Assembly (NCBI GenBank): GCA_015069415.1
Contig: SVIQ01000003.1
Coordinates: 19,300 to 83,299, forward strand
Direction: 5' to 3'
Length of the DNA: 64,000 nt
From: Clostridiales bacterium
Lineage (GTDB): Bacteria > Bacillota > Clostridia > Christensenellales > UBA1242
The notes beneath the pieces were generated by a model. That model saw only the letters and a program-made list of their open reading frames with translations. It was not told the origin of the DNA and did no database searches. Of this stretch, positions 1,410-44,688 are shown in pieces. Both the position numbers and the translations under genes were made by a program. Position 1 is the first letter of the stretch, and every line of letters begins with the position of its first letter.

Positions 1410-3389
1410 ATGAACGAAAGAATTAAAAAGTTTTTTAAATTTAATATGCTAGTTTTCATATACTCTATTTGTGCAATCTTAATGGAATTAATTAGCATTT
1501 GTTTTACAGACTGCAAACCATATCTAACAAAACCGGTTTATCCTTTAGTTTTGTTTAGTTTAATTTTACTCATCTTATTTTTATTTAAAAGTGTAAAAAC
1601 TAAGGTAACAATTTGTTCAATATTACTATTTGCCCAAGTCGTTTTAAACGTTGGATTTGTCTATCTTTATGATTCAAACGGAACATATTTTGAATGGGCA
1701 ATGATCAACCAACGAAATGATGCTTTTGGAACAATTGAAGATTTATCTTTAAGGTGGAGCCTACTTACAATTTTAATGACTATATTTGTTATATATTTAA
1801 TTGGCTCAATTCTTACGATAAAATTTTTCTACAAAAAGGACACTAAACATAAAACTTACAAACTTACAAAAATTATTATCTCTTCCCTTCTCGCAATTTG
1901 TTCAATATTTATTGTTTTGAATCCAACAATAAGCGCAATTCAAAGTAGCAAACAAAGTTATGTTGACAGATTTTTATATAGTGACGCAACAAGCAAATAT
2001 CAACAACTTGGAATTTCTTCAAATGCAATTTACGAAACTATTAATGGAACAATTGTTGACAACCTTGTAAAGCATGACAACAAAGGAATAGAAAAATTTA
2101 TTTACGAAGATGAAAATGCTTTACTTGCTACTTCTCCATATTTTGGAATTAGCAAAGACAACAATTTAATTTACATACTTGTAGAGTCGTTTGAGTGGTA
2201 TGTGTTCCTTGAAAATTGCACACCAGAACAATCTCAAATTTTGTACCCAAACTTAAATAAATTCTTTTCAGATAGCATATATGCAGACAATTTCTATGCA
2301 AGAGAAAAAACAGACACTTCAGAAATGCTTGCCCTACTTGGAAGCAACCCTACAGGGAAATATACAAATTATGATTTCCCCAACAATTCTTTCGATTGGT
2401 CGCTTCCTAATTTATTTAAAGAGCATGTTAAAAACAACGGTAAAGACCTTGTACAAATCAAATCATTCCACCAAAACAACGGAGATTTTTACAACAGAAA
2501 CACACTTCATGAAAATTTAGGATTTGAACAACTAATCGACATAGAAGAAATGAAAGAATTCGGTCTTGTTGACACATGGAAAGGAAACCGAGAAAAGGGT
2601 CAAAGAACGCTAGACTCTGAAACTATGCTAAAAATGAAAGATGAAATGTTCCCAGACACTGATAGCACAAATCAATACATGACATTCTGGTTAACATTTT
2701 CAATGCACGGACATTACAAAGACAGAAAAATACTTAAACCTTATTACGACAAACTTGATTCAGTTGGAGCCTACCCTGAAGGTAAAGGAACTAAAGGTGA
2801 TTATTTAAGAACATATGCTGCAACGGTTATGGATTTTGACAAGGCTCTTGGAATTATGATGGAAAAACTTGAGCAAAACGGAGATCTTGAAAACACCACT
2901 ATTGTAATGTTCGCTGACCACAACACCTATTACAACAATTTAAGCTATTATGCTAAAGACATTGACGAAAGATACAACAGTGAATTGTACAGAGTTCCAT
3001 TTATGATTTACGATCAAAAGTTAAAAACTCAATACGAATTAAACGAAGGAACAAACAAGATTTCTAAGTTCACAACCACTTCAGATATGTTGCCTACTAT
3101 ATTAGATATTTTCGGAATAAATGGTTACAAAAACTTATACTATGGAACTTCTATGTTTGTAAAAAATGTTGAATCTGTAATATTTTCTAGAGCGTACGGA
3201 ATTTTTGTTACAGACAAATTAATTTGTTTTGGAGCAAACGACCTTCTTTACAAATCTAGCGATTTCACTAAAGATGACTACGAAAGTTTCTTATCCCGCG
3301 CTGAAACATTACTAACCAAACAAGAATACTTAGATAAAATTTACTACAATGATTATTTCAAAAATCATCCATTAAGAAAAATAAGTTAG
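1410..3389 (+). CDS. LtaS-family sulfatase / phosphoglycerol transferase-like membrane protein
   Basis: N-terminal multi-TM block plus an extracytoplasmic sulfatase-type domain. Motifs: VESFEWY, REKTDTSEMLALLGS, FADHNTYY. Confidence 0.75.
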   Translation: MNERIKKFFKFNMLVFIYSICAILMELISICFTDCKPYLTKPVYPLVLFSLILLILFLFKSVKTKVTICSILLFAQVVLNVGFVYLYDSNGTYFEWAMINQRNDAFGTIEDLSLRWSLLTILMTIFVIYLIGSILTIKFFYKKDTKHKTYKLTKIIISSLLAICSIFIVLNPTISAIQSSKQSYVDRFLYSDATSKYQQLGISSNAIYETINGTIVDNLVKHDNKGIEKFIYEDENALLATSPYFGISKDNNLIYILVESFEWYVFLENCTPEQSQILYPNLNKFFSDSIYADNFYAREKTDTSEMLALLGSNPTGKYTNYDFPNNSFDWSLPNLFKEHVKNNGKDLVQIKSFHQNNGDFYNRNTLHENLGFEQLIDIEEMKEFGLVDTWKGNREKGQRTLDSETMLKMKDEMFPDTDSTNQYMTFWLTFSMHGHYKDRKILKPYYDKLDSVGAYPEGKGTKGDYLRTYAATVMDFDKALGIMMEKLEQNGDLENTTIVMFADHNTYYNNLSYYAKDIDERYNSELYRVPFMIYDQKLKTQYELNEGTNKISKFTTTSDMLPTILDIFGINGYKNLYYGTSMFVKNVESVIFSRAYGIFVTDKLICFGANDLLYKSSDFTKDDYESFLSRAETLLTKQEYLDKIYYNDYFKNHPLRKIS

Positions 3390-3419: not shown

Positions 3420-5639
3420 TTAATTAATTTCCTTTAGCTTTTCAACAAATATTTCAGCATTTGTTTTTGACTTATCATTGATATTTTTTCTTCCCCAATA
3501 ATCATTGTAGAAAATTCTGTTACATGCACTAAGTTTCTCGAGTAAAATCTGAGCTTCCTTTTCCACTTGATCTATGTAATCTTCACTATCATAGAATTTG
3601 ATATCTGCATATTTCATTGCTACATCGTTATTGTTTTCAGGATTATCTTTTCTTAAGTACTTAATGTTGTTTAAACTTACAAAATAAATACTGTCAGTAA
3701 TAAACATATCATAAGCTCTAGAATACAAAACGCTTATGTCTAACTCAAAAGCCGAATGTCCAAAATATAAATTTCCAAACACATTTATTCCACATAAATC
3801 TAACAATGTTGGAACAATGTCAGCTGTACACATGAATTTCTTAACCTTGATTTGTGTTCCGCCACCAGTAGGATTAATTTGATATCTTTCTTGAATTTGA
3901 AGCTTAGCCAAATCTAATGCATCTTGACTAGCCATTCCTAATTCTTCATATTTATTTTTTAATTCGCTCACTAATGTAGTTGAAATGTGATTTTGAATTC
4001 GATTACTTAAACTTTCAGGAACATTAATCATAAGAGGAACTCTAAATAAATTTGTGTAATTTTCATGTTTTTCATTATCTATATCTTTTACATAATTAGA
4101 CAAACTTGAGTAATAAGTGTTGTGATCGCCAAACATACAAATTATGGTGTTATCTTTTAATCCTCTTTGCTCCAGCTCTTCCATAATCACCCCAACAGCT
4201 CTATCCAATTCCATTACGCACGCACAGTAGTAGTAGAAATTGTTGTGATTAAATGCGGAGAAACTATCCCCTTTCTTTTCTTTTATTCCGAACTTAGCCA
4301 TAGCATCGTAGTAACCGCGTTTTTCTAAATTGTTACGATAAGTATATTGTCCATGCATTGTTATACTTGTTATGTATGTGTAAAATCTTTGATCAGTTGG
4401 GAACATCTTGTCTGCACAAACTTCAATCATGTCAGCATCGAGATTTCTTTCACCTTTCGCACTCCAGTCAGTCATGCCCCACTTTTTCATTTGTTCAGTA
4501 GCATTGTAACTGTCAAATCCTGCAGACAACAATTCTTTATTTCTGTTGTAATAAGTGTAACTTCCGTTATGGAATGAATTTGCTGTAATATCTTCATCTA
4601 ACGACTTTAGAACGTTTGCCATTGTCGTACTCATTGTATTTGATGGGAAATCGTAGTTAATATAAACATTTGTTGGATATGAACCCAAGAAGCTTAAATT
4701 TTCAGAGATATCTGTTTTTTCTCTAGAATAAAAGTTACTCATAACTAAACTTGAATCATAGAAAGCATAAAGATTTGGATACAATTCTCTTAAAATTTGC
4801 TCTGCACTTGTGTAAGGATTTCCATTTTCGTCACTGTAATTAGAATAGTTTATGTCATAACCATTTACAAACAATTCAGCGTCTTGCATAAATCCATGCC
4901 ATTCAAAAGATTCTGCTAATATTGTTATAACGTTATACTCTTCCGTCGTTTCAAAGTTTGTTTGATAAATATTATTTGCATCATAAATAAATGTTTCAAG
5001 TTGCTGTTCATCTCCTAGTTTCACATTACTAAAGAATGTACCTTTTACAACTTCGTTTAGGAAATTTCCAACCGCTCCATATTCACAATAAGATGCTTCA
5101 CTTGTTCTGTACAACTTGTCAGTTACATCGTTTTCAAAATCTTTGTTGTTGAAGTATAAAATTGTGCCCAAAGTGCTAACCGCTACAATTGATGTTGGAA
5201 TTGCCCACCATTTGATGCTAACAGGTGGTTCAGCATGTCTAACATAACGCGCACCAAAAACAATATATAATGCAATAGCCAAAGCAGAAACTGTGAAAAA
5301 GGCGAAATTTATTGGAACAGACTCTAAAATAGCCATACCATCATTTCTTAAGTTAAACATTCCGAAATCAAAGATAGTTTCAGTCATTTCAAAGATTACA
5401 ATGAAAACTAAATTGACTATCATGAAAAATATTAATAAAACTGATGATACTATATGTCTTGCCTTATTTGACGGAATTGACAATAAAATTGCAACGATAA
5501 ATAACTGTAATGTCAAAAAGATGAACGGCATACGAATGTAAAACTTTCCACTTGTAACAATTACAGCCATCAATTCGATTAAAAATACTAAACCGAAATA
5601 AATCCAAATTAATGAATTAGACTTTAAAAATTTTTTCAT
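3420..5639 (-). CDS. LtaS-family sulfatase paralogue (739 aa, with inserted segments)
   Basis: Same architecture as 1410..3389. Motifs: AESFEWHGF, SREKTDISENLSFLGS, FGDHNTYY. SD AGGTGA. Confidence 0.75.
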   Translation of the reverse strand: MKKFLKSNSLIWIYFGLVFLIELMAVIVTSGKFYIRMPFIFLTLQLFIVAILLSIPSNKARHIVSSVLLIFFMIVNLVFIVIFEMTETIFDFGMFNLRNDGMAILESVPINFAFFTVSALAIALYIVFGARYVRHAEPPVSIKWWAIPTSIVAVSTLGTILYFNNKDFENDVTDKLYRTSEASYCEYGAVGNFLNEVVKGTFFSNVKLGDEQQLETFIYDANNIYQTNFETTEEYNVITILAESFEWHGFMQDAELFVNGYDINYSNYSDENGNPYTSAEQILRELYPNLYAFYDSSLVMSNFYSREKTDISENLSFLGSYPTNVYINYDFPSNTMSTTMANVLKSLDEDITANSFHNGSYTYYNRNKELLSAGFDSYNATEQMKKWGMTDWSAKGERNLDADMIEVCADKMFPTDQRFYTYITSITMHGQYTYRNNLEKRGYYDAMAKFGIKEKKGDSFSAFNHNNFYYYCACVMELDRAVGVIMEELEQRGLKDNTIICMFGDHNTYYSSLSNYVKDIDNEKHENYTNLFRVPLMINVPESLSNRIQNHISTTLVSELKNKYEELGMASQDALDLAKLQIQERYQINPTGGGTQIKVKKFMCTADIVPTLLDLCGINVFGNLYFGHSAFELDISVLYSRAYDMFITDSIYFVSLNNIKYLRKDNPENNNDVAMKYADIKFYDSEDYIDQVEKEAQILLEKLSACNRIFYNDYWGRKNINDKSKTNAEIFVEKLKEIN

Positions 5640-5646
5640 ATTTCAC

Positions 5647-6315
5647 CTACAACAAATATACTAAATAGCACAAAAGCCATGTTAATCCAAATTTCTTTTC
5701 TGCCACTAAATATATAATTCCATACAAGAAACTGATGATCAAGTAAAAAGCTCTCAAATCCATTGCTAAAACAAAGAAGTCAATTATTCCAAAAGTAAGC
5801 AAAGCAAAAATCGCTCCATAAGGAATTATCCATTTTGTTTTAAAAATCTTTTCGCAACCTTTTTGTGTGCAAACTATGAACAAAATCATCAACACCATTC
5901 GAACTGCAAATGAAAGAATTTCCACCGCATTGCAAGCCAATCCGACAGATGTAACTTTTACACCTAGAGAGTATACGATTTTTACTTTCCAATTTATGCA
6001 TGCACTTACAATTAACATAGGTAAAATTGCTAAAACAAAAAGTAAAATTACTTGAATTGTCGTTAATTCTTTTTTGTTTTTGTTTTCAAACAGTTCTATT
6101 TTCAGTTTTTTACAAACAAACAAAATTAAAATAATTTCAACACCCCAAACAATAGCATTGATTAATGAGGTAAACAATTTAACTAAATTTCCATAGTAAA
6201 TATCATCAAAAATCGGCACAAACAATTCGCTCACAGCGCTTGAATACAAACACAGCAAAATAATTCCTGCCAAACAAAAATATTTAATTGAACTCTTATC
6301 TTTAACAAATGTCAT
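5647..6315 (-). CDS. hypothetical polytopic membrane protein, probably co-transcribed with 3420..5639
   Basis: 222-aa hydrophobic ORF with SD AAGGTG. Its stop lies 7 nt before the next start. Confidence 0.55.
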   Translation of the reverse strand: MTFVKDKSSIKYFCLAGIILLCLYSSAVSELFVPIFDDIYYGNLVKLFTSLINAIVWGVEIILILFVCKKLKIELFENKNKKELTTIQVILLFVLAILPMLIVSACINWKVKIVYSLGVKVTSVGLACNAVEILSFAVRMVLMILFIVCTQKGCEKIFKTKWIIPYGAIFALLTFGIIDFFVLAMDLRAFYLIISFLYGIIYLVAEKKFGLTWLLCYLVYLL

Positions 6316-6332: not shown

Positions 6333-6361
6333 ATTATACCAACTTCGACAAAAAATTACAA
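6333..6361 (-). promoter_or_regulatory. sigma-A-type promoter (TTGTAA-17-TATAAT) with a 0A-box heptamer in the spacer
   Basis: Minus strand reads TTGTAA ttttttGTCGAAgttgg TATAAT. TGTCGAA lies at 6344..6350. Confidence 0.55.
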
Positions 6362-6457: not shown

Positions 6458-6478
6458 GAATTATATCAAGGAGAAAAA

Positions 6479-6532
6479 ATGACATTTAATTTTGTAGCAG
6501 AACTTAATATGATGAGCACTATGTTAGTTTAA
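6479..6532 (+). CDS. candidate Met-rich leader peptide MTFNFVAELNMMSTMLV
   Basis: AAGGAG 5 nt upstream of the ATG. 17 codons plus TAA, and 3 of the last 7 codons are ATG. Sits between the promoter and a terminator upstream of metG. Confidence 0.4.
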   Translation: MTFNFVAELNMMSTMLV

Positions 6533-6588
6533 TATAACATAGATGTTTGTTGCGCAAATTTTAATATGTTTTAAAAAATAATAAAAAG

Positions 6589-6620
6589 AGAGCATCGAAT
6601 GTCGGTGCTCTTTTTGTTTT
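6589..6620 (+). terminator. intrinsic terminator inside the metG 5' leader (attenuator)
   Basis: AGAGCATCG-AATGT-CGGTGCTCT (9 bp, one G.U pair) followed by TTTTTGTTTT, 96 nt upstream of the metG ATG. Confidence 0.7.
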
Positions 6621-6715
6621 GGAGGTAGTATGATTTTACAGTATAACAATAATAGACTAATGCGATTTTTATTAATATCAAAAAATAATAAAATTAAAAA
6701 AAGGAGAAATTAAAA

Positions 6716-8302
6716 ATGAATAATATATTTATAGGACTATCTTGGCCGTATGCAAACGGCGAATTGCACATTGGACATTTAGGTTCATCTTTACCCGCAG
6801 ATATTTTAGCTAGATATTTTAGACTAAAAGGGGAAAATGTATGCTTTGTAAGTGGAAGCGACTGTTTTGGAACACCTATTTCAATTCAGGCCCAAAAAGA
6901 AAACACAAAACCAGATATCATTGCGAACTTTTATCATGAAAAATTTGTTGAAATTTTTAAACAATTAGATTTTTCTTTTGATAATTACACGAAAACATCA
7001 AACGAATATCATATAAACTTTGCAAAAGATTTTCATGATGATTTATACAAAAGTTCTTATGTGTACAAAAAAGAAGAACAACGATTATTTTGTCAAAGTT
7101 GTAAACGATTTTTGCCAGACAGATACGTATTAGGACTGTGTCCTAAATGCGGGAATATCACTAAAGGTGATGCATGCGAAAAATGTGGGAAAATCTTAGA
7201 ACCTGAAGAACTGTTTAATCCTAAATGTGGAATTTGCAATTCAACACCTATCTTAAAAAATACTTTTCAATATTATTTAGCATTATCCAAATTAGAAGAT
7301 CAATTAAAAAAGTTTTATCAAAATAACAACGAAAATTGGTCAACAAACGCTAAAAAATTAACCGAAAGATACTTTAGTGAAGGCTTAATCGACAGAGCTA
7401 TTTCTCGAGATTTAGATTGGGGAGTTCCTATTCCCTCTTCCGACTCTAAAGAAAAAGTTATTTACAATTGGGGAGAAAATGTTTTAGGTTACGTTGACGC
7501 TTGCAAAGAATATTGCGAAAAAAACAATTTCAATTTCAATGATTGGTTCAAAAGCAACGATTGTAAACATTATTATATTCACGCCAAAGACAACATTCAG
7601 TTTCATACAATAATATACCCCGCACTATTACTTGCAAATAGCAAACAATATCATTTGCCCGACAACATATATGCATACGAATTTGTAAACAATGAAGGAC
7701 AAAAAATTTCTAAAAGCAAAGGAACTTGTTTGACAGCCAGAGAATTATTAGAAAAATTTGATGTTGACTTTTTAAGGTTTTACTTTGCAAAAAATATTAG
7801 TGATAAAAAAGACTTAGATTTTAGATTGGAAGAATTTGCAAACACCGTAAATGGCGAATTAATTAACAACTGGGGAAATTTTGTTAACAGAACTCTATCT
7901 TTTGTAAAGAATAAATTTAATGGAAAAATTAAAAAATCTGTTCTTGATGATAATATCAAAACAAGAATTGAAGAAACTTTTACTAACACATCCAATTTCA
8001 TTGAACAAGGAAAAATTGCTAATGCTTTGAGAACAATTTTAGAACTTGTTGATTTTTCAAACAAATATTTCAACGAAACTGAACCTTGGAACGCTTTTAA
8101 GATTAATGAAGAAAAATGCAAAAATTTATGTTATCAATATCTTTCTCTTATATTGAATTTGGCAATTTTGTTAAATCCATTTATTCCTAAAAGTAGTAAC
8201 CAAGTCTTGAATTGGTTAGATACAAAATTAGAACGTTATCAAACAAATGAATTGTCAGATGTTGAAATTTTAGAATTTAATCCTTTGTACTCTAGAATTT
8301 AA
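6716..8302 (+). CDS. metG: methionyl-tRNA synthetase (short form, no C-terminal tRNA-binding domain)
   Basis: HIGH motif (ELHIGHLGS), KMSKS-type KISKSKG, and a CPKCG...CEKCG zinc knuckle. Confidence 0.95.
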   Translation: MNNIFIGLSWPYANGELHIGHLGSSLPADILARYFRLKGENVCFVSGSDCFGTPISIQAQKENTKPDIIANFYHEKFVEIFKQLDFSFDNYTKTSNEYHINFAKDFHDDLYKSSYVYKKEEQRLFCQSCKRFLPDRYVLGLCPKCGNITKGDACEKCGKILEPEELFNPKCGICNSTPILKNTFQYYLALSKLEDQLKKFYQNNNENWSTNAKKLTERYFSEGLIDRAISRDLDWGVPIPSSDSKEKVIYNWGENVLGYVDACKEYCEKNNFNFNDWFKSNDCKHYYIHAKDNIQFHTIIYPALLLANSKQYHLPDNIYAYEFVNNEGQKISKSKGTCLTARELLEKFDVDFLRFYFAKNISDKKDLDFRLEEFANTVNGELINNWGNFVNRTLSFVKNKFNGKIKKSVLDDNIKTRIEETFTNTSNFIEQGKIANALRTILELVDFSNKYFNETEPWNAFKINEEKCKNLCYQYLSLILNLAILLNPFIPKSSNQVLNWLDTKLERYQTNELSDVEILEFNPLYSRI

Positions 8303-8346: not shown

Positions 8347-8405
8347 CTTGTTCGAGTTCTCTCATCAAAAAAATGACCTTGCGGTCATTTGGTAGAGATG
8401 AGTGG
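8347..8405 (-). repeat. 59-bp duplicate of the tRNA-Ile 3' end (16 nt) plus its terminator
   Basis: Matches 8501..8559 at 57 of 59 positions. Contains CCACTCATCTCTACCA (minus strand) and the AAATGACC/GGTCATTT hairpin. Confidence 0.85.
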
Positions 8406-8500: not shown

Positions 8501-8559
8501 CTTGTTCGAGTTCACTCATCAAAAAAATGACCTTACGGTCATTTGGTAGAGATGAGTGG
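8501..8559 (-). repeat. master copy of the 59-bp repeat (tRNA-Ile 3' end plus terminator)
   Basis: See 8347..8405. The terminator hairpin AAATGACC-GTAA-GGTCATTTTTTT lies on the minus strand. Confidence 0.85.
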
Positions 8560-8959: not shown

Positions 8960-10018
8960 TTACTGATTAACAACATTTCCATCCGACACAATCAATCTAG
9001 TGTCTGCAAGGCGTTCAAATAATTGTAATTTTTGTGTCATAATTGCAAAAGTTGTAATTGAACCGCAATCATAACCATCTTTAGTAAGAGATAAAAGTTT
9101 TTTAGTGAGTGTCATATTTTCATCATCAATGCCCAAAAGAGAATTAACGTCATCAATAATGATAATAACATTTTGTCCTAATTCATATTTTCGCATAGCT
9201 CTTTTTATTGCTAAATTTAGTAAGCTCTTTGCGTAATCAAAATTTTCAGTGATATCACAAGTAAACATTTCACAGTTGTTGAGTTTCTTTAAATACATTC
9301 TATTTCGTTCGGTAAGAGTTAAATTAATGTAAATTTTCTTTTCATCCGGACAATTTTCAAACATATTCATAATTGCTTTTGTGTTTTCGTTACTATTTTG
9401 TCCATAGATATATACATTTTGACCATACTTAATTTCAAAACTCATTAGATTTTTATCTAAAAATTTAATAGGAACATCAGGCTCTTTTGCACTGTCATCA
9501 TAATAAGTAACATAATACTTTTGACCCGGGATTGCCTCAAGTCCATTTACAGCTTGAATGTTTGAAATTAAAGTTTTACCTTCCCTGTTTTCCAAAATAG
9601 CTTCAACATAATCTCCAGATACTAAATCAAAAGAGTCTGCAATAGCTTTAGGCAATGGATGCTGAACAAAACGATCAAAGCTTTTCTGCCAAACGAAATT
9701 TAATTCACCATTTCTTTCAACATAACCAGATATTTCAAAATAATTTTCTCCATCCGGACAAGAAGTATGTTGAGAAAATGTTATATTTTCATTACTTTGC
9801 ACAAGATTGAAAAAATCCACGAAAGACAAGCCCACATTCTTCGGTGGACGACCTTGCTTTGACTTTTTAAGACTTGGTTGTTGAGTGCCTTCTTTTAACG
9901 ACAAAATTTCGTCAATAAGTTGCTCTTTCTTTTTACTAGTAGGCGACTTAACTCCAGAACGTCTCGCAAGTTCTCTAAGCATATATATATTGTAATCGTT
10001 TAATTCTTCTCTAGTCAT
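8960..10018 (-). CDS. Rho-like protein: Rho_N/SAP-like N-terminus, OB-like middle, RecA-like fold with degenerate Walker A
   Basis: By-eye alignment to E. coli Rho. The N-terminus (LRELARRSGVKSPTSKKKEQLIDEIL) resembles Rho_N. IKYGQNVYIYGQNSNENTKAI aligns with IGRGQRGLIVAPPKAGKTML, so the P-loop is lost. LTERN aligns with IDERPEE, VIIIIDDVNSL with VIILLDSITRL, and GSITTFAIM with GSLTIIATA. The C-terminus is about 70 aa shorter. Confidence 0.6.
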   Translation of the reverse strand: MTREELNDYNIYMLRELARRSGVKSPTSKKKEQLIDEILSLKEGTQQPSLKKSKQGRPPKNVGLSFVDFFNLVQSNENITFSQHTSCPDGENYFEISGYVERNGELNFVWQKSFDRFVQHPLPKAIADSFDLVSGDYVEAILENREGKTLISNIQAVNGLEAIPGQKYYVTYYDDSAKEPDVPIKFLDKNLMSFEIKYGQNVYIYGQNSNENTKAIMNMFENCPDEKKIYINLTLTERNRMYLKKLNNCEMFTCDITENFDYAKSLLNLAIKRAMRKYELGQNVIIIIDDVNSLLGIDDENMTLTKKLLSLTKDGYDCGSITTFAIMTQKLQLFERLADTRLIVSDGNVVNQ

Positions 10019-10034: not shown

Positions 10035-10063
10035 ATTTTATCACAATTTCGACAATCTGTAAA
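10035..10063 (-). promoter_or_regulatory. promoter TTTACA-17-TAAAAT with a 0A box in the spacer; a second, inverted 0A box lies upstream
   Basis: Minus strand reads TTTACA gatTGTCGAAattgtga TAAAAT. Boxes lie at 10048..10054 and 10080..10086 and form a 9-10 bp inverted repeat. Confidence 0.5.
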
Positions 10064-10099
10064 GCAATTTTGTAAAAAATGTCGAAATTTTGAACAAAA

Positions 10100-10447
10100 T
10101 TATAAAGTTAATCCCAAACTAATCATAATTGCCACATCAACCTTTTGCATAGTTAAACTGTCTATTTCACTAATTTTATCTTTTAAACGTCTTTTATCGA
10201 GAGTTCGAATTTGTTCCAACAAAACAACGCTATCTTTTACTAAATGATACTTTTCTCTCTCAAGTTCTATATGTGTTGGAAGTTTTGCTTTTTCTAGTTG
10301 GCTAGTAATCGCGGCAACTATTACTGTTGGACTATATTTATTACCGACATCATTTTGCACGACCAAAACAGGGCGCATTCCACCCTGTTCGCTCCCAACA
10401 ACGGGACTAAGATCAGCATAATAAATTTCACCGCGAATAACTTCCAT
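10100..10447 (-). CDS. mazF: MazF/EndoA (NdoA)-type mRNA interferase toxin
   Basis: Roughly 60% or higher identity by eye to B. subtilis EndoA ([40 protein letters not shown]). Confidence 0.9.
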
Positions 10448-10638
10448 TAGTCTCCCTTCAAATAAGTTAATGTAATCGACAAATCATCAAAATTGTCAAA
10501 CTCTGTAACGATATCGTTTACAAGAGAAATGTAATTACTATCATTATATTCATCGATATCAAATTTGGCACATTTAGGCTTGCTTAATGGCTTGAATTTT
10601 TCTAAATAATCAAAGTAAGCCAAAACTTCATCTAACAT
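10447..10638 (-). CDS. acidic 63-aa protein translationally coupled to mazF (candidate non-canonical antitoxin)
   Basis: TAATG stop/start overlap with mazF. Asp/Glu-rich, with no RHH- or AbrB-like N-terminus recognisable. Confidence 0.5.
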
Positions 10639-11386: not shown

Positions 11387-13789
11387 TTAAAATGCAACAG
11401 TTACAGTAATTGTGTCTGCTTGATTACAAGATTTAAATATATCACTTAAATTTGTTAAATCAAAATTATCTTTTGTCATTGTTACAGACTTTTCTCCGAA
11501 AGTAAATGTAACACTTTGTGGATAATGTTTAACAATGTCAAAATTGATACCTGAAGCTTTTTCGATATAAATATTGTCAAAGAAGTAAGCCTTCAATTCG
11601 TCGTTTGTATATTTTGTCATTGAATCTACAACACCAAAATAATCAACAGCTTTATCTTTAATTACAAAATCTTTACATGCTACAAATTTTGAAATTTTAT
11701 TTGTAATTTTAATGAAATCATTTTCTGGTGCATATGCGTTTTTATATTCGACAAGCACGTCTCTTATATTTACAGCTTCAATTACATAATTTGCAATTTC
11801 ATCATTGTTTTTACCAATTAGAACAATCGCTTGATCTTCTTGATAAGTTTGAACAATCAAATTTGTTACAGTTAAAGTTTCATCTGAATTCTTTTTGTAA
11901 ACAATCCAATTTGATTTAGTTGTTTCAGGTAAAATACAACCATAGTAATTTTTACCTTCTGTGTAAGTTTCAATTGAATATGTTTTCTTAACAAGTTCAT
12001 TTCCATCTTCAACAAATGTCACAGTGTACTGAATAGCAAATTTTTGAGCTACAATTTCTTGATTTGTTGTGTAGTTCAAATCAACTGTTGGCCAAGCTAA
12101 TTCATAATATTTTTCAACTACAACTCCATCAAGACTAGGTAATTCAATTGTTGAAAGGTCTGTTTCAATAGTGTATGTTTTTAAAACTGATGTAGAGCTA
12201 TCCGCAAACGCATACCCTTCTGGAAGTTTGTATGTTACATTATATTGAGTTGGAGTTTTAACTAATACAACTACAATATTTCCACCATTAGTTAAATCGT
12301 AATCATCCCATTTTGTATCATAATGCTCAACAGTTGGAACTTCTGGAACAGTAATTGTTTTGTTTTCAATGTCATATGTTTCAGTAGCAATTTCAGTTTC
12401 ACCATTCTTGAATGTAACAGTATACTCAACTGGAGTTTTTACTAATTCAACTGTTTTGTTTTCAAGTTTTGTTAAATCATATTCTTCCCAACGAGTTTCG
12501 TAATGGGCTATTGTTGGAACTTCTGGTTCTTCAATTGTTCTGTCTAAAATTGTATAAGTGTCGCTACCAACTTCTGTAGAACCGTTCATAAATTTAACTG
12601 TGTAAGATGTTGCAGTTCCGCTAAGAGTAACGTTTTCAAAATCCTTAAGTTCATTTGTGTCAAAAGATGACCAATTTACTTCTCCTTCAAAGTAAGCTTT
12701 TACGTCGTCAGGAATTGCAGGAGCAACAACTTCTTTATTTTCAACAGTATATTGTTTTACTATTTGAGAAGATTCATTTTCAAATGTAAATCCTTCTGGT
12801 AAATTAAATTTCACAGAATAAACGATTGGACTAACTACAGCCATTACTTCAACTGAATTTTGTTCATCAAAATCAAATGTGAATTCTGGCCAAATCATTT
12901 CATAATGTTCTTCAACTTCTACGTCAGTTAAACTTGGTAGAACAAAAGATGATTCTTCATCTAAAACTGTGTATGTTTTCTCAATGAATGTTATTGAATC
13001 AACAAATTCATAACCTTCTGGTAAAACAAATTTAATAGGATAGTTGATAATAGATTTTTCTACTTGAATTTCTTGTCCTACAACAAATTCTAAAGTATAG
13101 TCAGGCCAAGCAAATGTATAACCATTTTCTACAGGAAGAGCTGGAACAACTATTGAATCTTTATTTTCTACTGTATACTCAACATTTCCACCATCCACAA
13201 CGCTGTGACCGTATTTAAATATCAAACTATATTTATTAGGTGTTTCAATTCTTGTAATAGTTACGTCTTGTGTGATCTTAGTTTCACTAGTAACTTCAGT
13301 TTCTCCAATTTTATAAACATATGTATAATGTTCTCTCGGAGTATATTTAGAATTTAATTCCTCTAAAATACCATTTGCACCACTGAATTTAAAACTATCT
13401 TCGAAAGTTCCGTCTTTTACAACGACATTAAACTTTTCTTCAGCGAAAACAGCCTTAAATTTCGCATTTTTACTAATTGACAATTTTAATTTCTTATTTA
13501 AGCTATAATCTTTATCGTTTTTTTGCCATTTAACGAATGTCATTTTTTCTTTCGCAACAGCATTAAGTTCAAGCTTAGATTTTTTTGTTACAGTAAATTC
13601 ATCTGAAGTTCCTGCACCAATTTCATAATCCTTGTCATCAATAGACAATTGTACTTTTCCACCATCAGATGCTGAAATTGACAAAGTATATTCTTTCTTG
13701 TCTTGAACATTTTTAGTCACAAAGATAACACCAACGGCTAGTGCTGTAACAATTAAAACTGGTATAAGAATACTAATTAATTTTTTCAT
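11387..13789 (-). CDS. N-terminally anchored surface protein with about 9 Listeria-Bacteroides-type repeat modules
   Basis: Signal-anchor KKLISILIPVLIVTALAVGVIF. Recurring ~70-aa units (Y.V.F...G...TYT..D..I..P..P....Y...W..YDLT). Confidence 0.65.
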   Translation of the reverse strand: MKKLISILIPVLIVTALAVGVIFVTKNVQDKKEYTLSISASDGGKVQLSIDDKDYEIGAGTSDEFTVTKKSKLELNAVAKEKMTFVKWQKNDKDYSLNKKLKLSISKNAKFKAVFAEEKFNVVVKDGTFEDSFKFSGANGILEELNSKYTPREHYTYVYKIGETEVTSETKITQDVTITRIETPNKYSLIFKYGHSVVDGGNVEYTVENKDSIVVPALPVENGYTFAWPDYTLEFVVGQEIQVEKSIINYPIKFVLPEGYEFVDSITFIEKTYTVLDEESSFVLPSLTDVEVEEHYEMIWPEFTFDFDEQNSVEVMAVVSPIVYSVKFNLPEGFTFENESSQIVKQYTVENKEVVAPAIPDDVKAYFEGEVNWSSFDTNELKDFENVTLSGTATSYTVKFMNGSTEVGSDTYTILDRTIEEPEVPTIAHYETRWEEYDLTKLENKTVELVKTPVEYTVTFKNGETEIATETYDIENKTITVPEVPTVEHYDTKWDDYDLTNGGNIVVVLVKTPTQYNVTYKLPEGYAFADSSTSVLKTYTIETDLSTIELPSLDGVVVEKYYELAWPTVDLNYTTNQEIVAQKFAIQYTVTFVEDGNELVKKTYSIETYTEGKNYYGCILPETTKSNWIVYKKNSDETLTVTNLIVQTYQEDQAIVLIGKNNDEIANYVIEAVNIRDVLVEYKNAYAPENDFIKITNKISKFVACKDFVIKDKAVDYFGVVDSMTKYTNDELKAYFFDNIYIEKASGINFDIVKHYPQSVTFTFGEKSVTMTKDNFDLTNLSDIFKSCNQADTITVTVAF

Positions 13790-13810: not shown

Positions 13811-15187
13811 TTATCCAACGATAATTTCATCAAAATCAACATCAGGCACAGGTTCTTTTAAATCTGCATTTTCTGTTGCAGAAGATGATGAGCTATCTGA
13901 TGTTTCTGGAGCTAAAGTTGTTTCACTTTCTGAAGTCACAATTGAAGAATCTACAGACCCTTGAGGTTCTTGTGTAGCATCTGTTGATGGAGTTTCAACA
14001 ACTGGTGGCTCATCTGTAACTGTGTCAGATTGTGATGGTGTTGTAGGAGCTGGTGTTGTTGTGCTTTCTGTTTTAAGACTTGCATTGTAAGTAGCAACAA
14101 GTTCTGAAATAATTTTGTTTAACTTTGCTTGTTTAGCTTCATTCCAAACTAATCCACCAAAATCAACAGTCACAGTTACACCTTCAGTCTTTTCACCATT
14201 TAATCTTCCGGCTAAAATATCTTCTAATTCTTCCACGCTCAAAGCACCGTTTGAACTGTTAATTGTAACTGGAATTGAGAATTCAGTGTATTCTGAATAA
14301 GAAGTAATAATTCTCATACTGTAGTTATAAGTATCATTAGATGCTGGCAATTTTCCCTTGTAGCTAATTCTAGTTGAATGAGCAACATCTCCGCGAACAA
14401 TTTCTTCTAATTTGTCCATACCTTCTTTAGTCATTTTTGAAGTTTTAAGACCTTGTCTACCAACTTCTTGAATGAGAGCATCCACAATATTTTTGCCTTC
14501 TCCCAATTTTGAAACATCAAAATCAGCTCCGATTTGTTCTAAAATTTGTTCTTGAGTGAAAGTTACAATGCTTTCGCATGTGTTATTTCTTACAAATTCG
14601 AAAACTAGATCAAGGTATTCCAAGATTGAAGCGTTATTTCCAATGTATGCTCCATCTTTAAACATAGAATGAGCTGTTTTTCTGATTTCCATCATGTCAT
14701 CAATATTTTCTTCGTTGGCTTTGTATGTAGCATAACCGTCAGACACCGCTCCTTGACCTGTCATAACTTTTCCAAGCACTCTCAATTCAGCATTTTCTTT
14801 AGTTTCTCCAACGACTTCAAATCCAGAACATTTAATTAAGATTTTAATTGTGTTAACTTCACCAATTTCGTAATCAGATCCTACAGCTTTTGCAATAGCT
14901 TCTGTTTTTTGAGCGATTTGAGAGTCTTCAACATTCTCATCACTACAAGCTGTCAAAACAGCTGGAGATACAGCTAACAATAAAGCCGTTAAGAAAGCAC
15001 CAATTCTCTTCTTACCTTTAGAAATTCCGTAACCAGTCTTAACTGCAGCTTCTTTTATTGCTTGTCCTGCACTCTTAGCAAGAGCTCCTGTTCCTCTTGC
15101 AAGTTTTTTCATTCTTTCATAAATTGACATTTTTTGTTCTTCAGTCAATCCCTTAACAAATTCCTCAACATTAATATTCTTTTTCAT
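13811..15187 (-). CDS. putative lipoprotein with a long cytoplasmic N-extension and a Ser/Thr/Pro-rich tail
   Basis: Start set at the ATG preceded by GGAGGGG. Lipobox-like LLLAVSPAVLTAC lies about 80 aa in. C-terminal TTPAPTTPSQSD...SSSSS tract. Confidence 0.55.
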   Translation of the reverse strand: MKKNINVEEFVKGLTEEQKMSIYERMKKLARGTGALAKSAGQAIKEAAVKTGYGISKGKKRIGAFLTALLLAVSPAVLTACSDENVEDSQIAQKTEAIAKAVGSDYEIGEVNTIKILIKCSGFEVVGETKENAELRVLGKVMTGQGAVSDGYATYKANEENIDDMMEIRKTAHSMFKDGAYIGNNASILEYLDLVFEFVRNNTCESIVTFTQEQILEQIGADFDVSKLGEGKNIVDALIQEVGRQGLKTSKMTKEGMDKLEEIVRGDVAHSTRISYKGKLPASNDTYNYSMRIITSYSEYTEFSIPVTINSSNGALSVEELEDILAGRLNGEKTEGVTVTVDFGGLVWNEAKQAKLNKIISELVATYNASLKTESTTTPAPTTPSQSDTVTDEPPVVETPSTDATQEPQGSVDSSIVTSESETTLAPETSDSSSSSATENADLKEPVPDVDFDEIIVG

Positions 15188-15218
15188 TTTCCCCTCCATA
15201 ATTTTTCGAGATGATTAT

Positions 15219-15247
15219 ATATTAACACAAAGTGTCGAAATTGTCAA
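15219..15247 (-). promoter_or_regulatory. promoter TTGACA-17-TAATAT with a 0A box in the spacer
   Basis: Minus strand reads TTGACA aTTTCGACActttgtgt TAATAT. Heptamer at 15233..15239. Confidence 0.55.
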
Positions 15248-16564: not shown

Positions 16565-17071
16565 TTAAATAAATCTACAACAAAAACAAGCGAGAATTGC
16601 ACATGAGACATTACACAACAAAGCAATTGGAATTGTCAGCAATGTTTTTTTGACATTTGTCGACGCAAAGTAAATGCTACTTACGTAAAAAATAGTATCT
16701 GTGCTTCCCATAATAACGCTCGCGCAATTTCCAATGTAACTGTCAACTCCGTATTGTGCGTAAATATCTCTTAACAAAACATATCCAGCATTAGAACTAA
16801 ACGGACGAATTAATGTCAATTCACAAACTTCAGGAGGAATCCCTACCCAACGAAAAACTGGCGCTAAAAAATTACACAAATATCCACTTAAACCACTGTT
16901 CCTAAACAATTCTACTGCAACAAACATTGCAATTATAAAAGGTAAAAGCGACGCCATTAAAGGCAAAGCTCCTTTTGCTCCTTTTACAAAACTTGAGTAA
17001 GCATCCACACCCTTGATTACTGCATAAATTAAAACAATTCCAATGAACAAAGGAATAAACAAATCAACCAT
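16565..17071 (-). CDS. spmB: spore maturation protein B-like (nucleoside-recognition/Gate domain membrane protein)
   Basis: 168-aa polytopic protein overlapping and co-oriented with a SpmA-like gene, which is the typical spmA-spmB pair. Confidence 0.7.
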   Translation of the reverse strand: MVDLFIPLFIGIVLIYAVIKGVDAYSSFVKGAKGALPLMASLLPFIIAMFVAVELFRNSGLSGYLCNFLAPVFRWVGIPPEVCELTLIRPFSSNAGYVLLRDIYAQYGVDSYIGNCASVIMGSTDTIFYVSSIYFASTNVKKTLLTIPIALLCNVSCAILACFCCRFI

Positions 17072-17624
17072 TCTTCCTCCTGTAAATAGCCATTACAAGA
17101 AGAACTCCTAAAATAGTCGGCAAAAAAGTTGAAATGATTGTGGGAATTATCACACTGCTTGGACTTATGCTCCCCGCCATAGCTCTCATACCTATTACTG
17201 TGGTAGGAAAAATTTGAATCCCTGTAGAATTTATAACTACAAGCATAATCATCGCTCTTGTTGCTTTATTGCTTCCCTTGTCCATGCCTTTCATTGCTTT
17301 GATACCATAAGGAGTTGCGGCACTTCCAACACCCAACATATTTGACGCAATGTTCATACAAATATTTTTTCTAGTTTCCTTGTCTGTTCGTCCAAAAATT
17401 TTTTCAACCGGACGAGACAAAATGTTTGATAATTTATGACTTAATTTACAATCATCCATAACTTGCATTATCCCCATCCAGACAGCATAAATGCCGACAA
17501 ACTCAATCGCCATGGTTACGCCCATTTTTGCACCATTCATCATTGTTGAAATTATTGTAGATGGCGCGAAAATACATGTCATTATCAAACTCGAAATTAT
17601 TAAAACAACCCAAATTTTACTCAT
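17064..17624 (-). CDS. spmA: spore maturation protein A-like (nucleoside-recognition/Gate domain membrane protein)
   Basis: 186 aa. An N-terminal MSKIWVVLII-type helix and a Gate-domain-like sequence. 8-nt overlap with spmB. Confidence 0.7.
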   Translation of the reverse strand: MSKIWVVLIISSLIMTCIFAPSTIISTMMNGAKMGVTMAIEFVGIYAVWMGIMQVMDDCKLSHKLSNILSRPVEKIFGRTDKETRKNICMNIASNMLGVGSAATPYGIKAMKGMDKGSNKATRAMIMLVVINSTGIQIFPTTVIGMRAMAGSISPSSVIIPTIISTFLPTILGVLLVMAIYRRKNG

Positions 17625-18527: not shown

Positions 18528-18911
18528 GTGAAAATTTTATTATTATATAAAGGTATGAATACAGATTATAAAGACATCCCTGCGTCAGTTTTAATGACGA
18601 GAATTGGTCTTGTTTTATCTAAATTAGGAATGAATGAAAGATACGCATCCTTTGAGTACCTTAATTTTATTATTACTTACATGATAAAATATAGCGATGA
18701 AAGTGATGAAGCCTTCGATTCTGCTTGTCAAATGTTAATGGAAAAAAATTCAATTAGCATGCGAGCAATCACTAACGGTGTAGGCAAACTTATGAACAGT
18801 TGCACACATGAACAAATTTTAGGCAAACCTTACTATCTTCAGCAAAGATATGGAATCAAAAACAAAATTCGAATGATAAAATCTTTCGTTTTGAAATGTA
18901 ATCTTATATAA
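18528..18911 (+). CDS. divergent Spo0A_C-like stand-alone DNA-binding protein (no receiver domain)
   Basis: LSKLGMNERYASFEYLNFII... and ISMRAITNGVGKLM resemble the Spo0A C-terminal HTH region. The true start may be the ATG at 18555. Confidence 0.45.
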   Translation: MKILLLYKGMNTDYKDIPASVLMTRIGLVLSKLGMNERYASFEYLNFIITYMIKYSDESDEAFDSACQMLMEKNSISMRAITNGVGKLMNSCTHEQILGKPYYLQQRYGIKNKIRMIKSFVLKCNLI

Positions 18912-19269
18912 CTTGCCCTAATATGTAATTTTTAACTAGATAAATAAACTCACAACATCTTGGCTTTTTCTCTTTGTTCCAAAATACGATGAGTTTATTT
19001 TTTAATATCGGTTCCCAAAGTTTGTCTATTAAATTTCTTATATCCCTTTCTATAGTACATTCATTCTTTTTATGTTTTTCGGCAATATAAGGATAAACAT
19101 CTTTGTAAAAAGCCTTAACTTTTGCATTTTGATTAATTAATAAGTCTTGAATATCAACCAAATAACTAAATCCCCTATATTTATAAGACACTCCCAATTC
19201 TTTAATTTTTAATGTTAAAAAATAATTGTTAGTCAATGTTTCTTGGTATAATTTTTCTTTTTGTGTCAT
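18904..19269 (-). CDS. Spo0A_C-like stand-alone DNA-binding protein (no receiver domain)
   Basis: Three segments align with B. subtilis Spo0A: ELGVSYKYRGFSYLVD with EIGVPAHIKGYLYLREA, VYPYIAEKHKKNECTIERDIRNLIDKLW with [28 protein letters not shown], and KPRCCEFIYLV with KPTNSEFIAMV. Confidence 0.7.
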   Translation of the reverse strand: MTQKEKLYQETLTNNYFLTLKIKELGVSYKYRGFSYLVDIQDLLINQNAKVKAFYKDVYPYIAEKHKKNECTIERDIRNLIDKLWEPILKNKLIVFWNKEKKPRCCEFIYLVKNYILGQVI

Positions 19270-19301: not shown

Positions 19302-19330
19302 AGTATAACACAGAAAAACTCTCGCGTCAA
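19302..19330 (-). promoter_or_regulatory. promoter TTGACG-17-TATACT of the 121-aa Spo0A_C-like gene
   Basis: Minus strand reads TTGACG cgagagtttttctgtgt TATACT. Confidence 0.5.
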
Positions 19331-19332
19331 AC

Positions 19333-19368
19333 AATTTTGTACAAAATTCAAATATTTTTGTACAAAAT
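19333..19368. promoter_or_regulatory. two palindromic operator-like sites (AATTTTGTACAAAATT and TTTTGTACAAAA), centres 21 bp apart
   Basis: Perfect 16-nt palindrome at 19333..19348 and perfect 12-nt palindrome at 19356..19367, immediately upstream of the -35. A 0A box lies at 19388..19394. Confidence 0.6.
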
Positions 19369-19486
19369 TATCAAAATTGGCTTAAATTTCGACAAAAACG
19401 GCTAATTTTAGTACACAAAAGACTACTTTTTGTTCAAAATTTAGCACGTTCAACAAAAAAAATGAGCAATCACGCTCATTTTTTTC

Positions 19487-35973: not shown

Positions 35974-36002
35974 TTGACTTTTTTCGACAATTTAATTATG
36001 AT
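35974..36002 (+). promoter_or_regulatory. promoter TTGACT-17-TATGAT with a 0A box in the spacer
   Basis: TTGACT tttTTCGACAatttaat TATGAT. Heptamer at 35983..35989. Confidence 0.55.
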
Positions 36003-36026: not shown

Positions 36027-36593
36027 ATGCTTACTTTAATCATATTTAGCATTGGAGCAATCTTGTCATTATCTCTTGGAATTGCTTTCAATATTGACAC
36101 AATGAAAATTTGGCAAATTAGTGTAATTTTTATATGTGCTCTTGCAATAATACTTATTATAAATGCCTTAGTTGCAACAATATGTTGCAAATGGTTACCA
36201 AATAAAATATTTGACAACGACAAATTTTTCACTCCTAGCAAAAAAGAATGTAGATTTTATGAAAAATTAAAAATTAAAGTTTGGAAAGACAGAATTTTAG
36301 ACTTAGGAAAACTCAATAAATTTAAAAAAAATAAAATGGAAATTCCAAAAGATCCAGAATATATTAAAAAATTTATTTTAGAATGCAAAAAAGGATTTTT
36401 GGATCATTTCCTAAGTATATTTGCGTCAATCTTAATTTTATTTGCAGTTCCAAAAACATTTATTGTACCAATGGCATTACCAATGTTTATCACAAGCCTT
36501 GCGTTAAATATTATGCCTATTCTAATTTTACGTTACAACATTCCAAGATTAAATTCAATTTTAAAATTTCTTGAAAGAAAAAGAGACAAATAA
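36027..36593 (+). CDS. CrtO-family (glycosyl-4,4'-diaponeurosporenoate acyltransferase-like) membrane protein
   Basis: By eye against S. aureus CrtO: IKVWKDRILDLG with VRKWKHKILDG, and ILILRYNIPRLNSILKFLERKRDK with [23 protein letters not shown]. Confidence 0.6.
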   Translation: MLTLIIFSIGAILSLSLGIAFNIDTMKIWQISVIFICALAIILIINALVATICCKWLPNKIFDNDKFFTPSKKECRFYEKLKIKVWKDRILDLGKLNKFKKNKMEIPKDPEYIKKFILECKKGFLDHFLSIFASILILFAVPKTFIVPMALPMFITSLALNIMPILILRYNIPRLNSILKFLERKRDK

Positions 36594-39727: not shown

Positions 39728-39786
39728 AATTCCTCCAAAACTATTTAATTATAGCACAATTTAACTAATTTTACAAGTCTTTTCGT

Positions 39787-40017
39787 TTAATTTCTAACAT
39801 ATGTTATGAATACCACAAAAGCAAACAACAAAATAGTAATAATTAGCAAACTGATTTTTTCAAATTGTTTTTGTTCTCCGTTGTAAATTTTGTAAAATCT
39901 TAAAATACTAATAAAAATTATTGCAAACAAAATTACGTAAATAAAAGCAAACAACCACGGATTCATTGTTGCAATCCAGTTTTCAAATTGATAATAAATT
40001 GATTTTAACGCTTTCAT
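39787..40017 (-). CDS. hypothetical small two-TM membrane protein
   Basis: 76-aa ORF immediately downstream of gpmI on the same strand. Confidence 0.45.
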   Translation of the reverse strand: MKALKSIYYQFENWIATMNPWLFAFIYVILFAIIFISILRFYKIYNGEQKQFEKISLLIITILLFAFVVFITYVRN

Positions 40018-40026
40018 GGTTTTATA

Positions 40027-44041: not shown

Positions 44042-44356
44042 CTAAATACATTCAACACTTGCGTTCAAAACATGCTCAATATTGTCGTTTTTTATGTAAT
44101 ATACTACATTTTTACCATTGCGTTCACACTCTACAATATTTAAAGATTTTAGAAGTTTTAATTGGTGACTTACGGTAGTTTGATTAATGTTTAGAATGTC
44201 AGCTATTTCTCCGACGCACAACTCTTTTAACATTAAAAGAATAATTATTTTCAGTCTAGTGTCATCACTAAAAGCGTAGAAAAATGAGGTCATATTCTTG
44301 ATATTTGACTTGTTTGGTATATATTTCTTTAGTTCAAATTCGTCCATTATTTCCAT
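44042..44356 (-). CDS. ArsR/SmtB-family transcriptional regulator
   Basis: FYAFSDDTRLKIIILLMLKELCVGEIADILNINQTTVSHQLKLLKSLNIV (winged HTH with ELCV in helix alpha-3). Confidence 0.8.
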   Translation of the reverse strand: MEIMDEFELKKYIPNKSNIKNMTSFFYAFSDDTRLKIIILLMLKELCVGEIADILNINQTTVSHQLKLLKSLNIVECERNGKNVVYYIKNDNIEHVLNASVECI

Positions 44357-44463
44357 ACAAAAATTGTACTAAATTTTTAAATTCAAAAAAAATAATCACA
44401 AGATAAAATTTTAGCGAATAAATAGTAAAAACAACAAAAAATAAACAAGGAGCAAGAAAAAAT

Positions 44464-44655: not shown

Positions 44656-44660
44656 TCGAC

Positions 44661-44688
44661 AAAAAAACAGCATAAATGCTGTTTTTTT
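44661..44688. terminator. bidirectional terminator (small ORF / trpS)
   Basis: AAAAAAA-CAGCA-TAAA-TGCTG-TTTTTTT. Confidence 0.75.

Follow-up and report, generated by a model that had tools for sequence, protein, structure and literature searches.

Spo0A is the phosphorylation-gated master switch of endospore formers. Copies of the heptamer TGTCGAA, the core of its binding site (the 0A box), stand in promoters of a 64,000-nucleotide (nt) stretch of DNA, here called the window, from a Clostridiales bacterium of the GTDB family UBA1242 (assembly GCA_015069415.1, contig SVIQ01000003.1, positions 19,300 to 83,299), and raise the question of which protein reads them and to what effect. The initial annotation of the window drew attention to these boxes by eye; the observation is real, and stronger than its author could know. 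The heptamer is enriched in non-coding DNA, sits between the -35 and -10 elements of four promoters and is conserved in front of one gene, a divergent homologue of rho, while a protein with the DNA-binding fold of Spo0A is encoded in the neighbourhood; the identity of the binder and the sign of the regulation are what we infer from this arrangement. The DNA-binding domains of Spo0A from Bacillus subtilis and Clostridioides difficile recognise TGTCGAA as the core of their site and contact G2, C4 and G5 (PMC3485338).

Abundance of the TGTCGAA Box

Counted on both strands as exact TGTCGAA or its complement TTCGACA, the heptamer occurs ten times in the window, at the very positions first noticed by eye (6344, 10048, 10080, 11747, 15233, 16126, 19388, 24096, 35487, and 35983). 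The total as such is not enriched (7.15 +/- 2.5 in shuffled sequences). Six of the ten copies, as previously claimed, lie in the non-coding tenth of the window, that is, in 6801 nt or 10.6% according to a conservative map of open reading frames (ORFs) and RNA genes, where 0.48 (Markov-1) or 0.73 (Markov-2) copies are expected (Poisson P about 1e-5 for six). When each intergenic segment was shuffled with its dinucleotides preserved, the mean was 0.54 and the maximum 5, so that none of 3000 shuffles reached six. The signal is also independent of the choice by eye, because TGTCGAA takes rank 6 in an unbiased list of all 7-mers ordered by non-coding excess; the words above it are four Shine-Dalgarno words and CAAACAA, the latter coming from small unmasked ORFs.

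The excess of CAAACAA/GCAAACA in the nominally non-coding set can be traced to 39728-40026 and 44357-44686, apparently intergenic segments in which short genes for hydrophobic proteins of less than 80 amino acids (aa) are probable, e.g., one starting with an ATG at 44466. Another enriched 7-mer, AATGACC, is explained by two near-identical terminator hairpins downstream of tRNA-Ile/tRNA-Ala (8371-8390 and 8525-8544), each built as AAATGACCG[C/T]AAGGTCATTT followed by TTTTGATGAG.

The non-coding copies share a 3' flank, with A in 20 of 27, then T in 18 and T in 19, which extends the box to TGTCGAA-A-T-T (TGTCGAAATT); this ATT extension is missing from the coding copies. The flanks had been said to fit the extended Bacillus consensus, which can be written as TTTGTCGAAA-like, with A/T flanks; the 3' A is strongly preferred and TT follows it, and the 5' TTT does not differ from the AT background.

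Boxes within Promoter Spacers

Promoter-like sites scoring at least 10 of 12 were located with a promoter scanner and with our own re-implementation of the scan. Four of them, P1-P4, contain a box in their 17-nt spacer:

6333-6361, minus strand: P1, TTGTAA-17-TATAAT with TGn, upstream of genes for a membrane protein (222 aa, 5647-6315) and an LtaS-like protein (3420-5639)
6344-6350, minus strand: spacer box of P1, TGTCGAA, spacer positions 6-12
10035-10063, minus strand: P2, TTTACA-17-TAAAAT with TGn, its -10 ending 17 nt from the ATG of 8960-10018
10048-10054, minus strand: spacer box of P2, TGTCGAA, spacer positions 4-10, in this species only
15219-15247, minus strand: P3, TTGACA-17-TAATAT with TGn, upstream of 13811-15199 and 11387-13789
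15233-15239, plus strand: spacer box of P3, TTCGACA on the gene strand, spacer positions 3-9
35974-36002, plus strand: P4, TTGACT-17-TATGAT, upstream of the CrtO-like acyltransferase gene 36027-36593
35983-35989, minus strand: spacer box of P4, TTCGACA on the plus strand, spacer positions 4-10

P1, P2, and P3 were found by the scanner, each with 10 of 12 matches and a TGn extended -10, and P4, likewise with 10 of 12, by the re-implemented scan. All four had been described in the initial annotation. The spacers of such sites make up 4.4% of the non-coding 7-mer positions, yet they hold four of the six non-coding boxes (binomial P = 5e-5). An exact box occupies the spacer in 4 of the 24 non-coding promoter-like sites, and no spacer match with one mismatch or fewer is present in the other 20. 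The distance from the end of the promoter to the start codon is 17-25 nt for P1-P4, as for most good promoter-like sites in the window.

Between the -10 of P1 and the ATG there is a Shine-Dalgarno sequence, AAGGTGA; a search of metagenomes with the membrane protein of 222 aa gave no relatives. The P3 operon comprises 13811-15199, with an LTAC lipobox, and 11387-13789, encoding an 800-aa surface protein; it is an insertion, and the relatives lack it. It is also worth mentioning that two LtaS-like (sulfatase-domain) genes, 1410-3389 and 3420-5639, adjoin each other convergently, and only the latter stands behind the box-bearing P1.

The Box in Related Genomes

Nineteen related loci were fetched around orthologues of the gene 18904-19269, which encodes a receiver-less Spo0A_C protein, here called the orphan; they belong to metagenome-assembled genomes (MAGs) of reduced-genome, UBA1242-like Christensenellales. 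The closest genomes are MAGs of uncultured Clostridia, including Candidatus Onthoplasma (Christensenellaceae according to NCBI). Onthoplasma is placed in the GTDB family UBA1242, whose members live in the gut of farm animals and have genomes below 1 Mb, few regulators, and a lifestyle that is probably partner-dependent (PMC12306168). The content of the window is of the housekeeping kind (glycolysis, ribosomal proteins, two LtaS-like genes, PFOR, tmRNA, SmpB).

The 19 relatives have 17 copies of TGTCGAA in 243 kb of coding DNA and 19 in 42 kb of non-coding DNA, for which the expectation is about 2.5 (P about 2e-11). Among the 16 variants of TGTxyAA only TGTCGAA (7.5-fold) and TGTACAA (10-fold) are strongly enriched. 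Most of the non-coding boxes lie in a single orthologous spacer, between mazF and the Rho-like gene. The usual gene order is tex, the orphan, its paralogue, a 247-aa gene, a Gate-domain pair, an ArsP-like gene, a 150-aa gene, mazEF, and the Rho-like gene.

The Rho-like Gene as the Proposed Conserved Target

The elements of this promoter region, in addition to P2 and its spacer box, are as follows:

10080-10086, plus strand: upstream box, starting 23 nt 5' of the P2 -35, inverted relative to the gene, its position conserved
10068-10079: degenerate copy of the palindrome TTTTGTACAAAA, reading TTTTTTACAAAA on the gene strand and abutting the P2 -35
8960-10018, minus strand: the target gene, encoding a divergent Rho homologue of 352 aa without a Walker A motif

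The -35 of P2, (C)TTTAC(A/T), and its -10 are kept in the orthologous promoters, and in 7 of 14 Rho-like promoters (the window, L013, L017, L018, L019, L022, and L023) a box starts at -22/-23 from this conserved -35, even though the Rho-like proteins are only 34-41% identical. Further boxes at -13 and -53 from the -35 are present in L019 and L023, and in L013 and L025 one box lies directly 3' of the -10. Since the spacer box is found only in the window, the conserved element of 10035-10086 is the upstream box at 10080-10086. The promoter of the Rho-like gene would be the conserved core target, and its sites at about -58 and -46 occupy positions more typical of activation or of cooperative assembly.

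The label Rho-like, given to 8960-10018 from the sequence alone, is borne out: a profile of nine orthologues matches Rho structures at 6.5e-10, both in the ATPase region and in the RNA-binding OB region, and Rho_N and Rho_RNA_bind were detected in the orthologues. The protein is nevertheless not a canonical Rho, because it has no Walker A motif; GxxxxGK[ST] is absent from 8960-10018, with GQNSNENT at that place. The family model TIGR00767 gives 21.6 bits against a cut-off of 509. The gene always lies directly downstream of a mazEF pair, represented in the window by 10100-10447 and a 63-aa antitoxin-like ORF at about 10447-10638.

Spo0A_C-like Proteins Encoded beside the Target

Two genes of the window come into consideration as the source of the reader, and are listed here with the upstream elements of one of them:

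18904-19269, minus strand: receiver-less Spo0A_C protein (the orphan), 121 aa, candidate reader
18528-18911, plus strand: probable, very divergent Spo0A_C-like paralogue, 118-127 aa, convergent with 18904-19269 and overlapping it by 8 nt
19302-19330, minus strand: promoter of the Spo0A_C gene, TTGACG-17-TATACT with TGn
19388-19394, minus strand: box TGTCGAA upstream of the receiver-less Spo0A_C gene, in this species only

The orphan matches Pfam PF08769 with 63.3 bits (cut-off 25; E-value 2.3e-17) over profile positions 5-104 of 104; the protein of 121 aa is almost wholly this domain, which begins at residue 18, with 17 further residues. The full-length family model TIGR02875 covers it only with its C-terminal part (profile positions 146-252; 41 bits against a cut-off of 200), and an N-terminal receiver domain with the phospho-acceptor Asp is absent. 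A structure model of modest confidence (predicted local distance difference test, pLDDT, 61) has chains of 1FC3 and 1LQ1 as its top seven Foldseek matches, with a probability of 0.99-1.00 and a template-modelling (TM) score of about 0.5. In the alignment to the B. subtilis Spo0A-DNA complex 1LQ1 the ERxIRxxIxxxW of the recognition helix is kept; the helix reads CT[IV]ER[DN]IRN almost invariantly in the orphan family and (S/A)x[VI]ERxIR in canonical Spo0As at the same place. The region of Spo0A that we take to contact sigma-A is not conserved in the orphan according to the alignment.

The paralogue has no match in Pfam, NCBIfam, or the PDB, and its single-sequence model (pLDDT 47) is too poor for use. 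Its profile aligns with that of the orphan family by hhalign with 90% probability (E-value 1.6e-6, 97 columns), and the two profiles match each other reciprocally at 1e-9 to 1e-4. The recognition of two Spo0A_C-like proteins at 18.5-19.3 kb was therefore probably right, the second being very divergent. Of the 19 related loci, 12 have the paralogue gene. The Spo0A_C gene and the Rho-like core target lie 9 kb apart, and they are linked in the relatives as well.

Just downstream of the Spo0A_C pair, nearly all relatives carry the Gate-domain (nucleoside-recognition) pair of membrane protein genes, of the SpmA/SpmB or YjiH/YjiG type (16565-17624 in the window), followed by the ArsP-like permease gene, upstream of which a TGTCGAA box is present in L015 and L029.

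An exhaustive profile search of the Spo0A_C superfamily yielded 5149 representatives, many of them stand-alone and others tandem proteins of two to five domains. Among the metagenome proteins, P0009, P0013, and P0033 have 2-5 tandem Spo0A_C domains and no receiver domain, the four domains of P0009 having canonical-looking recognition helices. No characterised stand-alone Spo0A_C protein was found in the literature.

A Second Motif at the Promoters of the Spo0A_C-like and Rho-like Genes

The initial annotation did not mention a second motif, the palindrome TTTTGTACAAAA, which is present upstream of the Spo0A_C gene in the window as a tandem:

19335-19346: palindrome TTTTGTACAAAA, 6 nt from the -35 of the Spo0A_C gene promoter
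19356-19367: second palindrome TTTTGTACAAAA, 21 nt from the first

This tandem arrangement is kept in 19 of 19 related loci, so that the universal orphan gene goes with a universal palindrome (20/20 orphan promoters). The palindrome is also found upstream of the paralogue gene in most relatives and, in clean or near-clean form, at -13/-14 from the -35 of the Rho-like promoter in L011, L013, L015, and L027-L029. The related loci contain 36 non-coding and 17 coding copies of TTGTACAA, and nearly all of the former are at these promoters. The palindrome differs from the extended 0A box only in two central bases (GT-AC-AA vs GT-CG-AA), and those two positions are base-specific contacts of Spo0A (PMC3485338). 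In L019 and L023 TGTCGAA stands at -13 from the -35, exactly where other relatives have TGTACAA, and this shared position suggests that the two words are variants of one kind of site.

Which Protein Reads the Boxes?

The intergenic boxes are very probably functional protein-binding sites. Their reader probably has the Spo0A_C fold, which is favoured because a 7-mer ranked near the top without bias coincides with the 0A core and two such proteins are encoded beside the conserved target. The reading that we prefer, to which we assign a probability of roughly 45%, is that the receiver-less protein or proteins of the window read 0A-type boxes and that the copies in the spacers repress. The reader would be the 121-aa protein, alone or together with its divergent paralogue. 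It would be expected to bind independently of phosphorylation, because it has no receiver domain, and to be controlled by the amount of protein made. The conserved tandem palindrome at its own promoter would provide for autoregulation of the Spo0A_C gene. A protein bound within a 17-nt spacer would exclude RNA polymerase, and repression is the natural prediction for the four sigma-A-type promoters P1-P4, since occupancy of spacer positions 3-12 would clash with sigma and RNA polymerase. Its site at the Rho-like promoter may be the box that precedes the -35 by about 23 nt and adjoins a TGTACAA-type site; the latter abuts the -35.

The suggestion of a small, envelope-focused regulon accompanied the first description of the boxes. 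The regulator family and the local candidate which it named have stood, and repression is plausible; the scheme was too simple, as the boxes in the spacers are peculiar to one species, conservation points to the Rho-like gene as target rather than to an envelope regulon, and a second, related motif marks the Spo0A_C genes themselves. The envelope focus itself would rely on three promoters of one genome.

A more far-reaching scenario may be considered, in which the Spo0A of the UBA1242 lineage was stripped of its receiver and duplicated, and the resulting autoregulated pair, free of phosphorylation, reads the related half-sites TGTCGAA and TGTACAA, controls a catalytically dead Rho paralogue, and has, in this species, also spread as a spacer repressor to about one-fifth of the promoters, including those of cell-envelope genes; it is speculative and, in our judgement, unlikely to be right.

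A number of observations weigh against the preferred reading. The spacer boxes are specific to this species: a P2-type spacer box is found in 0 of 13 orthologous Rho-like promoters, the window alone having it, and of the 8 loci fetched via CrtO-like homologues, the 6 with an independent orthologous promoter all show a clear TTGACA-17-TAnnnT and none a TGTCGAA box (a second route to orthologues of P4, via the neighbouring SmpB gene, led to two close loci, both lacking the CrtO-like gene). The orientation of the spacer boxes is mixed, two each way. In the relatives the enrichment outside the Rho-like promoter is modest, with 6 boxes against about 2.4 expected (about 2.5-fold), and the 10 kb beyond each end of the window (about 20 kb) contain no non-coding TGTCGAA, a comparison without power because only about 2 kb there are non-coding. 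The public metatranscriptomes, which hold contigs of related organisms only, have practically no coverage of the region outside tRNAs. The recognition helix of the orphan has CT before the ER pair in place of the canonical SR. The motif universal at the orphan, paralogue, and Rho-like promoters is TTTTGTACAAAA rather than TGTCGAA, and as the palindrome marks the promoters of the Spo0A_C-like genes, the assignment of a reader to TGTCGAA is complicated and uncertain; the orphan may read the palindrome and another protein TGTCGAA, and a full-length Spo0A may be encoded elsewhere in the genome. No covariation of recognition-helix variants with motif variants was seen among the related loci.

The paralogue was considered as the box reader on its own. 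A box is present at the Rho-like promoter in 8 of 9 loci with the paralogue gene and in 1 of 5 without it (Fisher P = 0.023, uncorrected for phylogeny). The loci do not represent independent lineages, however, and where the paralogue is missing an enrichment of about 5-fold remains (4 boxes vs about 0.7 expected), and this candidate was rejected.

The rival that survives best, though we consider it doubtful, is a division of labour, in which a full-length Spo0A encoded outside the window reads TGTCGAA and the receiver-less paralogues read TTTTGTACAAAA in a local circuit of themselves and the Rho-like gene. It would account for the palindrome, and not the box, being universal at the orphan promoters and present at those of the paralogue, for its abutting the Rho-like -35, for the concentration of non-coding TTGTACAA at those promoters, and for an orphan recognition helix that differs from the canonical one at two positions before the ER pair. 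Non-sporulating Clostridia commonly have Spo0A (bioRxiv 10.1101/2022.02.25.481979), and unspecified 'sporulation genes' were noted with surprise in UBA1242 genomes (PMC12306168); these are, however, genomes below 1 Mb with few regulators (PMC12306168). No Spo0A_C ORF linked to a receiver (REC) domain is present in the fetched clade sequence, which amounts to about 0.5 Mb and covers a small part of each genome. The replacement of TGTACAA by TGTCGAA at the same position in L019 and L023 would also be simpler with one reader.

It is rather unlikely that the boxes are real operators of an unrelated factor encoded elsewhere and that the identity of TGTCGAA(ATT) with the 0A core is coincidental. The motif is physically tied to no protein, its 3' extension is ATT where the generally known Bacillus extension is A-rich, and the window also encodes an ArsR-type regulator (44042-44356). 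Against this, the 7-bp core of an unrelated factor would agree with the 0A core by chance in roughly 1 of 8000 cases, and the genome encodes two Spo0A_C-fold proteins beside the best-conserved target. Sites of the CodY, Rex, Fur, and LexA types were set aside, as these are palindromic by their general consensus, whereas TGTCGAA is asymmetric, and a -10 of the SigH type (RnnGAAT, again by general consensus) was rejected because there is no AGGA-type -35 at the right distance.

That the boxes have no dedicated function, being a by-product of promoter composition (TCGACA matches the -35 TTGACA in 5 of 6 positions) or a cluster picked out by chance after the fact, is improbable. The unenriched total of the window, the lack of conservation of the spacer boxes, and a weak -10-like hexamer 16 nt downstream of the P3 and P4 boxes read as TCGACA would agree with such an origin. 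It does not accommodate the non-coding count that no shuffle reached, nor the recurrence of the enrichment in independent genomes, nor the fixed-position box 5' of the -35 in 7 lineages; the motif had, moreover, been fixed beforehand as a known site, apart from its rank in the unbiased list. As a -35 mimic, TCGACA leaves unexplained this conserved upstream box and the two of the four spacer boxes which face the wrong way.

Finally, an action of the inverted boxes at 10045-10088 in RNA, as a hairpin ending the mazEF transcript or structuring the 5' end of the Rho-like mRNA, is highly improbable and was rejected as weak and unconserved: the arms ATTTCGACA and TGTCGAAAT do pair in the predicted fold as a 10-bp stem, but with a 25-nt loop, no T-run directly after, and a z-score of only -1.85 (8 of 200 shuffles fold as well), while the inverted layout is absent in the relatives, where box number and orientation vary, and the boxes at P1, P3, and P4 would be left unexplained.

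Comparison with Known Systems

The system preferred here resembles that of Spo0A and its 0A boxes in B. subtilis and Clostridioides difficile in several respects. The 7-bp core TGTCGAA is identical, the sites are in promoter regions, single or in tandem with a period of 9-10 bp (L019 and L023: TGTCGAAttTGTCGAA), a protein of the Spo0A_C fold is encoded, and, in this species, the gene of the regulator itself is preceded by a box. It differs in that only receiver-less Spo0A_C proteins are seen here, which allows no phosphorelay input, in the 3' extension, which is ATT instead of A-rich, and in the binding, which here is predicted. The host, too, is different, having a genome below 1 Mb and being probably cell-dependent, and sporulation-specific genes are absent from the window.

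In the Spo0A-repressed promoters of B. subtilis, abrB and spo0A Pv, 0A boxes overlap the core promoter, and in the classic abrB layout they lie downstream of the start site. The boxes described here likewise overlap the core promoter or lie just 3' of the -10 (L013, L025); in contrast to abrB, those of the four promoters are inside the -35/-10 spacer. The spo0A promoters are treated in bioRxiv 10.1101/2025.01.21.634141.

The isolated DNA-binding domain of Spo0A binds legitimate 0A-box targets without phosphorylation (PMC3485338). The orphan is comparable to that domain in extent, but it occurs naturally, as the product of a conserved family of genes, and has a divergent paralogue.

A relation between Rho and Spo0A is also known from B. 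subtilis, where Rho limits the activation of Spo0A and rho expression follows the activity of phosphorylated Spo0A (PMC5540618, PMC11599450). There Rho and Spo0A act on each other indirectly, by way of a SigF promoter and of transcripts that read through from the spo0F promoter, and the text of the paper does not mention a 0A box. In both cases a Rho-family gene is linked with a Spo0A-type regulator; here the boxes are in the promoter itself, and the Rho-like protein is the one without Walker A. With a direct 0A-type site at the promoter of a Rho-family gene, the Rho-Spo0A link would take a new form.

Other Features of the Window

A few further features of this reduced genome can be mentioned. 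The gene 50583-57218, placed between the rpsL/rpsG/fusA/tuf and rpoA/L17 blocks, encodes a surface protein of 2211 aa that has Chlamydia-PMP-type repeats as well as an M26-N-like segment and is very large in view of a genome below 1 Mb. Two genes of the methionyl-tRNA synthetase (MetRS) family lie within 10 kb of each other, 6716-8302 (528 aa) and, just before the start of the window, L035:7813-9810 (665 aa). The leader of the first of them, 6460-6700, contains a terminator-like hairpin and has no Rfam match.

Significance

The case bears on the fate of Spo0A in lineages that shed most of their genome. The 0A-box word is strongly over-represented in the promoters of a gut bacterium with less than 1 Mb of DNA, in which the visible Spo0A-type proteins are two sensor-less copies, and this pair is kept side by side across a family of uncultured bacteria of animal guts. 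The conserved tie to a degenerate Rho paralogue echoes the cross-talk of Rho and Spo0A in B. subtilis. If the preferred reading is true, it would provide the first regulon for the large, uncharacterised class of stand-alone Spo0A_C proteins, and a master developmental regulator would have been re-used as a constitutive repressor.

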